Positions 1,256-7,100 of a stretch of 9,321 nucleotides of DNA are shown piece by piece. The translations under genes were made by a program, and so were the position numbers. The stretch lies in the IMG/VR virus record IMGVR_UViG_2728369185_000012. One strand, given 5' to 3'. The stretch's first letter is position 1. Every line of letters begins with the position of its first letter. The DNA comes from a virus. Its lineage: Duplodnaviria; Heunggongvirae; Uroviricota; Caudoviricetes. The notes beneath the pieces were generated by a model. It did no database searches. It saw only the letters and a program-made list of their open reading frames with translations, and was not told where the DNA came from.

Positions 1256-1801
1256 TCATATTGCCCCCAGCATGGTGGTGACCATCGCCATCAATGGACC
1301 AGCCAGATCCGGGTCCACTCGAAACATCGACACAATGCCTTCACTCATCTCCTTCAGTTTCTGGTGGCGTGGTGCGTTGAGAATGACCGCCTGCTTTGCC
1401 TCACTGAGTTCCTTTTCCATTTCAGCCAGCCGAGCCATGAAGCTATCCTGCTCAACCAGGTGGCCGCGATATTCCAGCGGTAGTACCGCCAGAATTGCCG
1501 GGGTCAGTTCACGCACGTTATTTCGGTATTTTTCAGAATCGAATTTGTTATCGAGGAAGCGGAACAGCTTCTGGCGTGCACGACTGACATCATCAGGAAA
1601 ATCGATGGTGCCGCCGCCCTGTGCTCGATACTCATTCACAATGAGTGCGGCAACTACATCCTGATTATCTTCAGCAGACCAGGCGCGGACGGCATCACGA
1701 ATTTTTTCGTGGCCTGGCACCTGTTTTATTTGAGAACGATTTATCACCGCAGTCGGGCTAAATCCGCTAGTCTGTTGGTATGTAAGTGGTTGCATAATCA
1801 T
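1256..1801 (-). CDS. CII-position regulatory protein (YdaT-like, CII functional equivalent), 181 aa
   Basis: ORF between cro and O on the same strand. ATG at 1799-1801 with a weak AAGG upstream; the stop overlaps the upstream in-frame extension of O. The protein (MIMQPLTYQQTSGF...) is not lambda CII. Its position and size fit the YdaS/YdaT-type immunity modules of CP-933P/Rac-like prophages; family assignment is from memory, not a search. Confidence 0.65.
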   Translation of the reverse strand: MIMQPLTYQQTSGFSPTAVINRSQIKQVPGHEKIRDAVRAWSAEDNQDVVAALIVNEYRAQGGGTIDFPDDVSRARQKLFRFLDNKFDSEKYRNNVRELTPAILAVLPLEYRGHLVEQDSFMARLAEMEKELSEAKQAVILNAPRHQKLKEMSEGIVSMFRVDPDLAGPLMAMVTTMLGAI

Positions 1802-1825
1802 CGCCTTATCAGTTAACGCCGCAGA

Positions 1826-2053
1826 TTAGGCGGCAGAATTACTCGCGTTAAACAATGGTGCGAGGTCGGGACGAATATCTGCTGGCTTAATCTTTCCACC
1901 AGTGGCTGAGACAATTTTCATTACATAGCGGGCATCAATTCCGCCACCGTGTAGCCAACGCCAAACAGTGGGCTGGGCTACACCGCATAGATCTGCCAGT
2001 CGTTTTTGACTACCTGTAATACTGATTGCGAGTTGAATGGTTTGATTTGTCAT
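1826..2053 (-). CDS. cro: Cro-like HTH repressor (YdaS-type), 75 aa
   Basis: First gene leftward from the divergent operator region. ATG at 2051-2053 is preceded by AGGA; the ORF-track start at 2059 is a TTG two codons upstream. HTH segment SQKRLADLCGVAQPTVWRW; stop TAA at 1826-1828. Confidence 0.75.
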   Translation of the reverse strand: MTNQTIQLAISITGSQKRLADLCGVAQPTVWRWLHGGGIDARYVMKIVSATGGKIKPADIRPDLAPLFNASNSAA

Positions 2054-2084
2054 TATCAATTCCTATTGGTATTACAATGAATGA

Positions 2085-2113
2085 ATAATAGCAATGCGTA
2101 TTAACCATGGCAA
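2085..2113 (-). promoter_or_regulatory. PR-like sigma70 promoter for cro with overlapping operator (OR1-like site at about 2085-2103; second AATAGCAAA copy at 2112-2120)
   Basis: On the minus strand: -35 TTGCCA (plus 2108-2113), 17-bp spacer, -10 TATTAT (plus 2085-2090), about 25 nt upstream of the cro RBS. The 19-mer spanning spacer and -10 (TAATACGCATTGCTATTAT) matches the PL unit at 3966-3984 in 15 of 19 positions. Confidence 0.45.
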
Positions 2114-2127
2114 TAGCAAAACGTGTT

Positions 2128-2156
2128 TTGACCATCAATACGCAAGCGTATAAATT
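2128..2156 (+). promoter_or_regulatory. PRM-like promoter candidate for cI (weak; transcript probably leaderless)
   Basis: -35 TTGACC (2128-2133) and -10 TATAAA/TAAATT (2149-2156) with a 15-17 bp spacer, placing the start site at or near the ATG at 2164. There is no Shine-Dalgarno before 2164, as with lambda cI from PRM. Palindrome ATACGCAAGCGTAT at 2138-2151 overlaps it. Confidence 0.3.
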
Positions 2157-2163
2157 AAAACTT

Positions 2164-2856
2164 ATGAAAAAAGAAACTCTTGCTGATCGCTTAAACCTAG
2201 CGATGGAACAATCTGGGATGTCTCAAGGCGCTCTTGCAAAGGCGTCTGGCGTAGCTCAACCCACAATCTGGAGACTGACAAGCGGCAACGCGCGCGGCTC
2301 AACAAAAATTGTTGAAATAGCTAATGCATTGGGTGTTCGAACAGAGTGGCTCTCATCAGGCATAGGCCCGATGAGAAATGACGGTCAACAATCAGGGAAG
2401 CCTACTGTCAACCATTCCAAATACTTCAAGATTGACGTTCTTGATATAGAAGTCAGTGCTGGGCCGGGAGTCATCAACCGTGAGTTTGTAGAAGTCCTAC
2501 GCTCGGTTGAGTACTCGTTTGACGATGCTCGTCACATGTTCGATGGCAGGAAGGCGGAAAATATCCGCATCATTAACGTGCGTGGTGACAGCATGTCAGG
2601 AACGATCGAACCAGGTGATCTGCTGTTCGTTGATATCACGGTTAAATCTTTCGACGGTGATGGCATCTATGCGTTTCTGTACGACGACACCGCCCATGTA
2701 AAGCGCCTGCAAATGATGAAGGATAAGCTGCTGGTTATCTCTGATAACAAGAGCTACTCACCGTGGGACCCGATCGAGAAAGACGAGATGAACCGGGTGT
2801 TCATCTTCGGTAAGGTTATTGGGAGCATGCCCCAGACGTACAGGAAACATGGATAA
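2164..2856 (+). CDS. cI: CI-type prophage repressor (N-terminal HTH plus C-terminal LexA/S24 autopeptidase domain), about 230 aa
   Basis: HTH SQGALAKASGVAQPTIWRL; candidate Ala-Gly cleavage site (EVSAGPG); S24 catalytic motifs GDSM (Ser) and HVKRL (Lys). Start chosen at ATG 2164 (MKKETL...) to leave room for the divergent operators; the ORF-track start at 2107 is an alternative. Stop TAA at 2854-2856. Confidence 0.85.
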   Translation: MKKETLADRLNLAMEQSGMSQGALAKASGVAQPTIWRLTSGNARGSTKIVEIANALGVRTEWLSSGIGPMRNDGQQSGKPTVNHSKYFKIDVLDIEVSAGPGVINREFVEVLRSVEYSFDDARHMFDGRKAENIRIINVRGDSMSGTIEPGDLLFVDITVKSFDGDGIYAFLYDDTAHVKRLQMMKDKLLVISDNKSYSPWDPIEKDEMNRVFIFGKVIGSMPQTYRKHG

Positions 2857-2922
2857 TCAGCACTGTGCTGATGAGTCGTTTAGGGGATAGTAAATTTAAT
2901 TAGAATTAGACGAGAGCGATTT

Positions 2923-3786
2923 ATGGATTGTGACGCTTTACAGGATATAAAAATCTCTCTTAGGTATGACGGAAAAGATGCTTTAAATCATGAAATAGAT
3001 TTGAACTGCCTAGGAGAATCCCTAAAGGGTTTTTCTAAAGTTCTCTCAACAGCAGCTTCTTTCTCTGTTACACAAAAATATAGTAAATACATTAATTATC
3101 AGGAAGTTAAGGTTTACGCACGCGAAGCAAAAGCTAACTGCTTTACTCTTGAAGCAGTTCTTAACTTCGCCACTCAGAACCAGTTGTTCTCGGGGATCGC
3201 CGCAACTATACTTGGCGCAATACTACAATATATTTTTGCGAGAAATTCTAACAAGAAAGATGAAATGAAAGCTTTGCAGCAGTCACTTGAAAAGGCCATA
3301 GAGGCACTAGGAAACAAGGATGCTGGAACCATTGATAAGTTGATCTCTTTGATTGACCGAATGGCTGTAGAGCTTCGCCCCTCTGTAAGGCAGGCAGTAT
3401 CACCTATTGGTAATACTTGCGATCAGATAAGTGTTGCAACAAATGTTGACGGCTGCCTTCTAAAAGTTAATGAGAGAGATAAAGCTGAAATTGATAGGCT
3501 TGATGATGATGAAGTTCTCGGTCTTCGTGAGTATCGTGCTTTTCTTACAGAATTTGATGCACAAAATATGACAGCTAAAATAATTTTAGATGGTGATGAC
3601 TCAAAAAAGAGAATCACTGCTGAAATTAGCGATCCAGCTGCAGGAAAGAAGAATAACCCGTATATTAGAGCTCTTAGTGCATATATATCAACCAAAGGTG
3701 ATCCATCTGCAGTATTCACTATAACCGCAAAGGCTACTGTTAAAAAAGGCCAGATAAACAGGTTATTTATTGTAGATGCGAAATGA
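2923..3786 (+). CDS. Hypothetical protein of unknown function, 287 aa, cotranscribed with cI; AT-rich moron in the slot equivalent to lambda rexA-rexB; candidate defence/exclusion gene
   Basis: Clean ORF starting 67 bp after the cI stop on the same strand, with an intrinsic terminator immediately downstream. The first 60 nt sample about 37% G+C. One hydrophobic segment ([19 protein letters not shown], about nt 3184-3240) lies between hydrophilic domains. I recognise no similarity to RexA/RexB or any other family. Confidence 0.8.
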
Positions 3787-3788
3787 TT

Positions 3789-3817
3789 TCCCCGGCCGTC
3801 GTGCCGGGTTTTCTTTT
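3789..3817 (+). terminator. Rho-independent terminator ending the cI-moron operon
   Basis: Stem CCCGGC (3791-3796), loop CGTCGT, stem GCCGGG (3803-3808), followed by TTTTCTTTT (3809-3817), directly after the stop at 3786. Confidence 0.75.
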
Positions 3818-3938
3818 GCCTCCCCTCATCACACACCGTTCAAAAAACCACCATAACCCCCGCTTCAGTTATCGCTATGCGATGCAAGTCACAAAATTAA
3901 TTCCTTTTGCTATCAAACAGTTAATATCAAAATGCATC

Positions 3939-3984
3939 AATCAATAGCAATAAGTATTGATATCACTAATAGCAATAGCTATTA
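3939..3984 (+). promoter_or_regulatory. PL-like sigma70 promoter with two operator sites (OL)
   Basis: -35 TTGATA (3956-3961), 17-bp spacer, -10 TATTAT (3979-3984). An 18-bp palindrome TAATAGC-AATA-GCTATTA (3966-3983) overlaps the spacer and -10. A second site, TCAATAGCAATAAGTATTGA (3940-3959), has TCAATA/TATTGA inverted arms. The 9-mer AATAGCAAT occurs at 3942-3950 and 3967-3975. Confidence 0.5.
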
Positions 3985-4178
3985 TCACCATGTCGCAACA
4001 ACACAACGATACGGCAACCACCTGATTCGCCGTTGCGATGACCGCTTAGATCCGCAGCTTGAATTTCAGCAGGCTCCGGGGAGTGCGAGGGGTGAAGCGG
4101 ACGCGTTAACGTCGGTGTGACCAGCTGAAATCAACTCAACACTTCATACCTCAGTCGCTTCAACGAGGCGGCTTAGTT

Positions 4179-4469
4179 ATGACAACCGGCGGCCATCCAC
4201 CGCCTGAATACGCGCAGAAGTCTCTATATGTTCAGCAGCCCAGCTTACGGGCAGGAGTTTTTATGGTTCATCAACATTACGGAACTCAGACCGTTAATCG
4301 CGGTGCCGTCCGGCCAGGTATGCTGGTTAAACACAAAGATGGTACCTGGACGGCATCAGCTAATTTGCGCGGTCGGCTTTACTTGCATCGCGGCATCGAA
4401 CGAACGTACACAAAAGATTTGCTCGTGGAGGTTTACCTGAATGGTACTGGCGGTGGTCTGAGCCACTAA
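4179..4469 (+). CDS. Hypothetical basic protein, 96 aa; first ORF downstream of the PL-like promoter (N-position); coding status uncertain
   Basis: ATG at 4179 preceded by GAGGCGG. The protein is net basic and Gly/Pro-rich (MTTGGHPPPEY...) with no Arg-rich N-terminal motif. No homology recognised. Confidence 0.3.
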   Translation: MTTGGHPPPEYAQKSLYVQQPSLRAGVFMVHQHYGTQTVNRGAVRPGMLVKHKDGTWTASANLRGRLYLHRGIERTYTKDLLVEVYLNGTGGGLSH

Positions 4470-5219: not shown

Positions 5220-6065
5220 ATGAGTACAGCACTCGCAACGCTGGCTGGGAAGCTGGCTGAACGTGTCGGCATGGATTCTGTCGACCCACAGGAACTGATC
5301 ACCACTCTTCGCCAGANNNNNNNNNNNNNNNNNNNNNNNNNNNNNNNNNNNNNNNNNNNNNNNNNNNNNNNNNNNNNNNNNNNNNNNNNNNNNNNNNNNN
5401 NNNNNNNNNNNNNNNNNNNNNNNNNNNNNNNNNNNNNNNNNNNNNNNNNNNNNNNNNNNNNNNNNNNNNNNNNNNNNNNNNNNNNNNNNNNNNNNNNCGT
5501 TCCGGTGGTGGGCGTTGATGGCTGGTCCCGCATCATCAATGAAAACCAGCAGTTTGATGGCATGGACTTTGAGCAGGACAATGAATCCTGTACATGCCGG
5601 ATTTACCGCAAGGACCGTAATCATCCGATCTGCGTTACCGAATGGATGGATGAATGCCGCCGCGAACCATTCAAAACTCGCGAAGGCAGAGAAATCACGG
5701 GGCCGTGGCAGTCGCATCCCAAACGGATGTTACGGCATAAAGCCATGATTCAGTGTGCCCGTCTGGCCTTCGGATTTGCTGGTATCTATGACAAGGATGA
5801 AGCCGAGCGCATTGTCGAAAATACCGCATACACTGCAGAACGTCAGCCGGAACGCGACATCACTCCGGTTAACGATGAAACCATGCAGGAGATTAACACT
5901 CTGCTGATCGCCCTGGATAAAACATGGGATGACGACTTATTGCCGCTCTGTTCCCAGATATTTCGCCGCGACATTCGCGCCTCGTCAGAACTGACACAGG
6001 CCGAAGCAGTGAAAGCTCTTGGATTCCTGAAACAGAAAGCCACTGAGCAGAAGGTGGCAGCATGA
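5220..6065 (+). CDS. bet: Bet (Redbeta) single-strand annealing recombinase; the central part is masked by an N-run
   Basis: The N-terminus [32 protein letters not shown] and the C-terminal 188 aa ([26 protein letters not shown]...ATEQKVAA) match lambda Bet. Reading frame is preserved across N 5317-5497. Start is 5 nt after the gam stop; the stop overlaps the exo start (ATGA). Confidence 0.9.
5317..5497. other. Run of 181 undetermined bases (N) inside bet
   Basis: Directly seen. The flanking codons are in the same frame. Confidence 1.
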
Positions 6066-7006: not shown

Positions 7007-7100
7007 NNNNNNNNNNNNNNNNNNNNNNNNNNNNNNNNNNNNNNNNNNNNNNNNNNNNNNNNNNNNNNNNNNNNNNNNNNNNNNNNNNNNNNNNNNNNNN
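7007..7100. other. Run of 94 undetermined bases (N) covering the orf63 3' end and the junction with orf61
   Basis: Directly seen. Its length is consistent with the missing orf63 codons plus a short spacer. Confidence 1.

Follow-up and report, generated by a model that had tools for sequence, protein, structure and literature searches.

The window, that is, the whole 9,321-nucleotide stretch of DNA analysed here, reads as the early region of a lambdoid prophage, with its map running right-to-left relative to that of lambda. On the minus strand lie the replication gene O with iterons (240-1259), a gene for a YdaT-type cII analogue (1256-1801), and cro (1826-2053), which heads the PR operon and whose 75-aa product has a YdaS/P22-Cro-type HTH and was identified from its ORF, Pfam and phrog_35. 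On the plus strand, the cI repressor gene (2164-2856; ORF and Pfam, 230 aa, HTH_3 and Peptidase_S24) is followed by a cargo gene (2923-3786; DUF7946/DUF7947) and an intrinsic terminator of 6 G-C pairs and a T run (3791-3818), which is conserved in relatives, closes the cI-cargo operon and lies upstream of OL; kil, gam, bet, exo and int are located farther downstream on the same strand. Repressor (HTH plus S24) and cro genes are thus arranged divergently around a short intergenic region, as in lambdoid immunity regions, and the DNA between them is 71% A+T. E. coli chromosomes carry near-identical sequence (99.8% identity, 97% of the window covered), and the phages PhiR30_1, Perceval, 4A7, D2, 1W and 3W match the window at 96-97% identity in the immunity region. 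Several deposited phage genomes already annotate these genes as cI and Cro.

For cI, Pfam returned Peptidase_S24 (1.3e-18) and HTH_3 (1.8e-6). A phmmer search of its N-terminal domain (residues 6-67) against the PDB yielded the 434 repressor (1sq8, 2r63, 1per; E 1.6e-5 to 6.7e-5), and the PDB search also matched cI to UmuD. The cI recognition helix is GVAQPTIWRL (residues 29-38), and Ala99-Gly100, Ser143 (GDSM) and Lys180 (VKR) stand where a LexA-like self-cleaving repressor is expected to have them. Cro matched Pfam YdaS_toxin (E 9.6e-15), weakly P22_Cro, and the Xfaso1 Cro structure 3bd1 (E 1.2e-3); its recognition helix is GVAQPTVWRW. Cro and the N-terminal domain of cI are themselves homologous (E 4e-9) and have the helix GVAQPT(I/V)WR in common.

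An N-like ORF is absent after PL in the window. An Rfam scan of the window gave sub-threshold microRNA/sRNA noise only; neither OR, OL nor the PL leader matched a known RNA family. The idea that the PL leader (3992-4178) folds into a put-like antiterminator RNA, of the kind annotated in HK639, was rejected, since the folding energy of this stretch was no better than that of shuffles (z -0.61).

Operators and promoters at OR and OL

The original prediction was built on a 9-mer, AATAGCAAT, placed at 2087-2095, 3942-3950 and 3967-3975, with the variant AATAGCAAA at 2112-2120 and 25 bp between copies in OR and OL alike. The first copy, the variant and the 25-bp distances were found as described, whereas the two OL copies had been placed 1 bp too low and lie at 3943-3951 and 3968-3976. 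AATAGCAAT occurs in exactly 3 copies in 9321 bp against 0.07 expected, a number reached in 0/200 shuffles. While the copies are real, the 9-mer is not the full unit: it represents the left half plus the centre of a 14-bp pseudo-palindrome, ATAGCAATnnGTAT, which grows to 18 bp once the flanking (T/C)A...T(A/G) bases are counted. The resulting operator consensus is (T/C)AATAGCAATnnGTATT(A/G), with the half-sites ATAGCAA and ATACsnA. For the pattern ATASSN6TAT, 8 strand-hits were counted against 0.61 expected, 7 of the 8 falling inside four of the operators. With a PWM derived from the three OR sites only, the best other matches in the 9.3 kb were OL1, OL2 and then a site over the cro ribosome-binding site (2059-2072), and local-composition shuffles gave a site match probability of ~3e-5 per position. 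The operator sites are far above chance.

At OR, three related dyad-symmetric sites lie over the divergent promoters PR and PRM, with starts at 2088, 2113 and 2138, i.e. at 25/25 bp. OR1 (ATAGCAATGCGTAT, 2088-2101; 18-bp form TAATAGCAATGCGTATTA, 2086-2103) is located over the PR -10 and spacer. OR2 (ATAGCAAAACGTGT, 2113-2126), the right half of which is weaker, occupies exactly the 14 bp separating the PR -35 (2108-2113) from the PRM -35 (2128-2133), with its centre at ~-44 relative to the predicted PRM start. OR3 (ATACGCAAGCGTAT, 2138-2151) has perfect 6+6 arms and lies within the PRM spacer and -10; it is the sole site without an ATAGCAA half and is made of two ATACGC halves. It is the palindrome that had been reported to overlap the putative PRM -10, and the overlap amounts to 1-3 bp. 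Another palindrome, CAAAACGTGTTTTG (2117-2130), was considered as an alternative OR2 and discarded in favour of the 25-bp register, since the right half of OR2 and the PRM -35 together account for its conservation.

PR (2085-2113, minus strand; TTGCCATGGTTAATACGCATTGCTATTAT as the reverse complement of these positions) consists of a -35 TTGCCA (2113-2108), a 17-bp spacer and a -10 TATTAT (2090-2085) preceded by TG, and has its predicted start near 2078. No promoter match in the region scores higher (10/12), and the TTG of its -35 as well as its -10 are conserved in relatives. PRM (2128-2156, plus strand; 9/12) consists of a -35 TTGACC (2128-2133), a 17-bp spacer and a -10 TAAATT (2151-2156), the latter being a weak 4/6 match. 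In the relatives, both PRM hexamers are invariant, and the gap between the -10 and the cI ATG always measures 7 nt while its sequence varies. A Shine-Dalgarno sequence is absent upstream of the cI start at 2164, which, like the fixed gap, agrees with a repressor mRNA lacking a leader, the situation in lambda and CP-933P; the cI mRNA is probably leaderless, with its predicted start at A2164.

PL lies at 3957-3985 on the plus strand, with a -35 TTGATA, a 17-bp spacer, a -10 TATTAT (10/12) and a predicted start near 3992. The predicted PL unit, TTGATATCACTAATAGCAATAGCTATTAT, is present, although at these coordinates and not at 3956-3984. Direct comparison bore out the near-identity of the PR and PL units, which have a common -35 position, spacer length and TATTAT -10, and whose 19-nt elements match at 15/19 positions; the two units are arranged as an inverted repeat of 31 nt with 71% complementarity. 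Within 1700-4300, PR and PL rank first among the sigma-70 matches, at 10/12 each. As promoter-like matches are not commoner in this scanned region than in shuffles (6 vs 5.6), the promoter calls are based on position and conservation.

PL, beyond cI as seen from OR, carries a further cluster of these operators, at an OR-OL separation of 1.83-1.88 kb in the window. OL1 (ATAGCAATAGCTAT, 3969-3982; 18-bp form TAATAGCAATAGCTATTA) lies over the PL spacer and -10. OL2 is a composite 20-bp near-palindrome, ATAGCAATAAGTATTGATAT (3944-3963), that abuts or contains the PL -35 and offers two 14-bp registers, of which 3944-3957 (ATAGCAATAAGTAT) is strong and 3950-3963 weak in the window; the relatives in Klebsiella and Raoultella prefer the alternative OL2 register, 19 bp from OL1. 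A weak OL3 candidate, ATATCAAAATGCAT (3924-3937), came from the ungapped OL alignment and PWM scans and is below threshold in the window, whereas its position is held by a strong site, ATAGCCATTGCTAT, in the Klebsiella, Raoultella and Kluyvera relatives. Upstream of OL, a conserved block on the plus strand (3900-3923) is composed of a half-operator-like sequence, ATTCCTTTTGCTAT (3900-3913), and an IHF consensus, TATCAAACAGTTA (3911-3923). As an OL operator, 3900-3913 was rejected, since just one half fits and the sequence overlaps the conserved IHF consensus. A comparable A/T-rich block is located upstream of PL in lambda, where IHF stimulates this promoter; by this analogy, the block is more likely an IHF/upstream element of PL than an operator.

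Conservation and exchange of the operators

In a motif search of related immunity regions, the operators were found conserved, with 25/25 OR spacing in 10/10 loci scanned. These 10 homoimmune loci, defined by the same cI N-terminal domain and found via BLAST and protein searches, stem from Escherichia, Salmonella (P22-like phage), Klebsiella, Kluyvera, Citrobacter and Raoultella. Except for single-base changes in OR1 and OR2, their OR sites are unchanged, as are the PRM hexamers, while sequence diverges in the leaders and in the spacers of 8 bp (OR1-OR2) and 3 bp (OR2-OR3). A pattern scan added 120 viral contigs, which brought the set to 130 loci, spread over six or more genera and comprising 72 different OR sequences. 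The pattern used for the contigs fixed 2119-2151, so that conservation of OR3 and of the OR2 right half is built in and only the 10 loci are independent there; in these 10 independently found loci, OR3 is invariant. Across the 130 loci, OR1 varies at core positions 9-10 only, and the left half of OR2 mainly at position 6. For OL, loci with sufficient downstream sequence and at least two clustered matches were used; the OL1-OL2 25-bp register was present in 96/96 of them, with the 19-bp register found too in 46. Depending on the cargo, OR and OL lie 0.96 to 3.1 kb apart in these loci. The operator sites thus present themselves as phylogenetic footprints.

The immunity module has also been swapped naturally. 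Between PhiR47_2 and the window, YdaT is 98% identical, cI residues 83-230 are 100% identical and the flanks on either side of OL are near-identical, whereas Cro is only 48% identical and the cI N-terminal domain differs, with the recognition helix VSQAAIQKI in place of VAQPTIWRL. Every OR and OL site is replaced in PhiR47_2 by a site of the ACAACC-N2-GGTTGT type, and the six best ACAACC-type matches in its 5.4-kb locus all fall in OR or OL; PhiR5_1 and a K. grimontii prophage have the same ACAACC-type OR sites and repeat the pattern, with YdaT retained at 98% and the cI C-terminal domain at 100% identity next to a different N-terminal domain and Cro, and with ACAACC-type sites at OR and OL between unchanged flanks. 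The cI DNA-binding domain, Cro and the operators have therefore moved together between phages that are homologous elsewhere, and sequence comparison shows the operators changing in step with Cro and the N-terminal domain of cI, which is how imm modules classically behave. Since YdaT and the cI C-terminal domain were kept while the sites were swapped, both are excluded as site determinants. As cI and Cro always co-travel with the sites, they are inseparable in silico as binders.

Proposed regulation and alternative explanations

Gene context, site position, conservation and covariation with the DNA-binding domains all favour the original proposal that these are the repressor and Cro operators of a non-lambda immunity. 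That the specificity differs from that of lambda likewise holds, the cI N-terminal domain being 434-like and the operator sequence different. We are highly confident that the sites are the operators of an immunity region in a lambdoid prophage, interlocked with its promoters and governing the choice between lysis and lysogeny; the specificity type may be called 'ST104/BTP1/4A7'.

In the mechanism proposed, cI dimers and Cro dimers would recognise the same 14-18-bp pseudo-palindromes. In the lysogen, cI on OR1 and OR2 would block the PR -10 and -35, and cI on OL1 (3969-3982) and OL2 (3944-3957) would block PL; the equal 25-bp spacing would suit pairwise cooperativity of adjacent cI dimers, and the 1.83-1.88 kb between OR and OL would permit a loop. 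From OR2, directly upstream of the PRM -35, cI probably activates PRM, which would produce a leaderless cI-cargo transcript ending at the terminator 3791-3818, and at high cI levels OR3 would be occupied, resulting in negative autoregulation of PRM. Upon induction, RecA-stimulated self-cleavage at Ala99-Gly100 would remove cI, and Cro made from PR would then shut PRM via OR3. Being the sole site composed of two ATACGC halves, OR3 may be the preferred or first target of Cro, and its lack of an ATAGCAA half offers a plausible basis for cI and Cro telling sites apart. Occupancy order, cooperativity, looping, PRM activation and exact transcript starts are inferred from lambda and 434. OR3 is also the best palindrome of the set; a lambda-like occupancy order would fail if cI bound OR3 tightest.

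That the repeats are just a side effect of two AT-rich sigma-70 promoters being alike, or of a promoter cassette having been duplicated, with no dedicated repressor involved, is very hard to sustain. PR and PL are indeed alike in -35 position, spacer length and -10, and intergenic DNA of 71% A+T favours chance ATA/TAT words; yet OR2 and OR3 lie outside the PR and PL cassettes and still display the same motif in the same 25-bp register, matches are as rare as ~3e-5 per position in the local-composition shuffles, the motif arms are kept while promoter spacers drift, and the sites are swapped wholesale when just the cI N-terminal domain and Cro change. It also appears improbable that one regulator alone, or another protein such as YdaT or a host factor, binds the sites, with cI and Cro not sharing them. 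YdaT proteins bind inverted repeats (PMC9986795), and a YdaT-like TTGATT-N6-TATCAA is found at 2042-2059. YdaT is, however, 98% identical in PhiR47_2 despite entirely different operators, which rules it out as their binder, and the Salmonella and Klebsiella relatives keep the operators with a CII-family gene in YdaT's place. The recognition helix common to cI and Cro moreover leads us to expect common half-sites, and hence shared operators, as in phage 434, and the footprints of the repressor and YdaS overlap in CP-933P (PMC8630535).

The switch could still follow a logic different from the three-site one of lambda, with four working OR-side sites (including 2059-2072) and three or four OL-side sites, and with a different occupancy order, cooperativity and cro control; we regard this as a serious possibility that falls a little short of an even chance, and as a refinement of the preferred explanation, not a replacement for it. 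Its centrepiece is a probable fourth operator on the OR side, the candidate 'OR4' ATTCCTATTGGTAT (2059-2072; reverse complement ATACCAATAGGAAT), which lies across the cro Shine-Dalgarno sequence, at ~+7 to +20 on the transcript predicted from PR. With a PWM score of 13.0, it is on par with OR2 and has a chance probability of ~0.001 per 30 bp; ATTCC-N5-GTAT is kept at this position in 129/130 loci, while neighbouring bases vary. The heteroimmune sibling type has a site of its own type over its own cro ribosome-binding site, in the same place, and four equally spaced intergenic repeats are present in CP-933P (PMC8630535), paralleling the candidate fourth site. On the OL side, the strong OL3 of the Klebsiella, Raoultella and Kluyvera relatives and the two registers of OL2 point in the same direction. 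Against this, half of 2059-2072 is the Shine-Dalgarno sequence, which would be conserved for translation anyway, the site lies 29 bp from OR1 (28 bp in certain loci) and hence off the 25-bp register, and OL3 is below threshold in the window. We tentatively put forward, as one possible version, a switch using this fourth operator over the cro Shine-Dalgarno sequence, at which bound repressor or Cro would act as a roadblock and exert autoregulation on cro, a feature absent in lambda; the device would recur, with matched specificity, in at least two heteroimmune YdaS-type modules, and would be accompanied by the OL2 20-bp palindrome with its alternative registers 19 or 25 bp from OL1.

Relation to known immunity systems

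The element shares with lambda the divergent cI and cro genes with ~110 bp between them, the three related pseudo-palindromic operators, the back-to-back arrangement of PR and PRM with predicted starts ~86 bp apart, and an OR2 abutting the PRM -35. Also common to both are a probably leaderless cI, cargo that would be co-transcribed with cI, a repressor of the S24 type with predicted self-cleavage, and a second operator cluster on PL ~1.8-1.9 kb away. It differs from lambda in its operators, which are 17 bp long in lambda and 14-18 bp in the window, of the ATAGCAAT..GTAT type and equally spaced at 25/25 bp; in its 434-like cI N-terminal domain, its all-helical Cro of the YdaS/P22-Cro type and its YdaT in place of cII; and in having no N-like ORF after PL, two strong OL sites only and possibly a fourth OR-side site.

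The operators of phage 434 are 14 bp long, with conserved outer bases, a variable centre and the consensus ACAA-N6-TTGT. With 434, the window has in common a homologous cI N-terminal domain, a repressor and Cro that are homologous HTH proteins with a shared recognition helix, and a 14-bp operator core. The 434 specificity itself is not found: the sites of the window follow ATA(G/C)(C/G)-N4-(C/G)(G/C)TAT, so that the half-site is ATA(G/C)(C/G) and not ACAA, and the helix AQPTIWR is not that of 434. C-terminal domain, Cro length and flanking genes differ as well. To judge from these comparisons, the element resembles 434 in the way it works, without being homoimmune with that phage.

In CP-933P of E. 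coli O157:H7, YdaS serves as a Cro analogue and YdaT as a CII analogue, and the repressor is encoded by a leaderless gene (PMC8630535). The YdaS-type Cro, the YdaT-type CII analogue, the leaderless repressor gene and the distant PL/OL are paralleled in the window, where cI is probably leaderless (PMC8630535, PMC9986795). The CP-933P repressor PaaR2, however, has no sequence similarity to lambda CI, whereas the repressor of the window has an S24 domain; the CP-933P repeats are 18 bp long with the consensus GTTTAGTAA, and its YdaT site is located at the ydaS end.

The closest counterparts are the Salmonella phages ST104, BTP1, SE1 and ST160, with 85% identity in cI, and the E. coli phages 4A7, PhiR30_1 and Perceval, with 99%. 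Salfasec13b, its cI likewise 85% identical, has ATAGCAATGAGTAT, ATAGCAAAACGTGT and ATACGCAAGCGTAT at 25/25 spacing, and PhiR30_1 and 4A7 have the same OR sites as the window, save one base in OR2 of PhiR30_1. The window matches the ST104/BTP1 type in cI recognition helix and, as read from Salfasec13b, in operator set; PhiR30_1 and 4A7 are predicted to be homoimmune with it and PhiR47_2 to be heteroimmune. The cargo after cI and the spacers differ among these counterparts, and the Salmonella phages have CII- and N-type genes in place of YdaT. 'ST104' has already been catalogued as a separate predicted repressor specificity (PMC2629481), and in BTP1 lysogens, cI and the downstream cargo gene bstA are transcribed from a single start site (PMC7067206). 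Literature searches for the operator sequence, BTP1/ST104 operators, DUF7946 and GevT returned no characterisation or binding data for this operator set, and within the library searched these sequences appear in no paper as phage operators.

The OR region is present in 718/5426 complete E. coli genomes, O157:H7 included, and the immunity type also occurs in P22-like phages of Salmonella (BTP1, ST104) and in prophages of Klebsiella, Kluyvera, Citrobacter and Raoultella. It is thus a common immunity type that has apparently never been studied biochemically. Its architecture is textbook, and the lambda/434 paradigm is confirmed by it, not extended. The operator map would allow homoimmune prophages to be predicted and reporters as well as virulent or clear-plaque mutants to be designed, and would serve the study of the cI promoter that drives the variable defence cargo beside cI.

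Sites at the cro start and upstream of PL

A YdaT-operator-like sequence, TTGATTTGTCATTATCAA (2042-2059), overlaps the start codon of cro. In CP-933P the YdaT operator is TTGATT-N6-AATCAA (PMC9986795), and the sequence here departs from it at a single base. The site was found in the E. coli relatives, among which PhiR30_1 and 4A7 carry a gene of equal size at the position of ydaT. It is missing in the Salmonella and Klebsiella relatives whose annotation has a CII-family gene instead.

On the far side of cI, an IHF consensus, TATCAAACAGTTA (3911-3923), precedes the predicted start of PL transcription by about 75 bp. The block enclosing it, AAATTCnTTTnGCTATCAA, is conserved in all homoimmune relatives and partly conserved in HK639.

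PL leader and replication origin

Between PL and kil (4263-4469) lies a conserved plus-strand leader of about 190 nt without an open reading frame (3992-4178), and an N-like gene is absent. The leader, which the heteroimmune PhiR47_2 and PhiR5_1 also keep, had no match in Rfam, and its predicted fold was no better than that of shuffled sequences (z -0.61). It is possible that the leader acts as a nut- or put-like antitermination site.

Within the O replication gene, about four origin iterons (TTTACCTGATTCGGGTAAAC; 702-799) recur with a period of 19-23, an arrangement like that of the lambda ori. Two masked runs of N, of 181 bases (5317-5497) and 94 bases (7007-7100), break bet and a reading frame further downstream, respectively, and appear as X in translations across them.

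Cargo slot and the O157:H7 copy

The plus-strand gene between cI and PL (2923-3786; phrog_5147) encodes a protein with DUF7946 and DUF7947; its PADLOC match to PDC-S42, a candidate defence family, is weak (E 1.5e-4). In the homoimmune and sibling phages, this slot holds genes annotated as GevT/GevA, HipA/HipD, SIR2 or ASCH, and in BTP1 it is occupied by bstA. Given these varied annotations and the PDC-S42 match, the slot looks like a hotspot for defence cargo, co-transcribed with cI.

A prophage of E. coli O157:H7 strain 7409 (locus L015, 4292-4514 in its own coordinates) has the same OR region, at 96% identity, but the annotation gives its cro a frameshift, and the gene after cI is of the SIR2 family. 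This prophage may represent a copy of the present immunity type that is defective and locked in.
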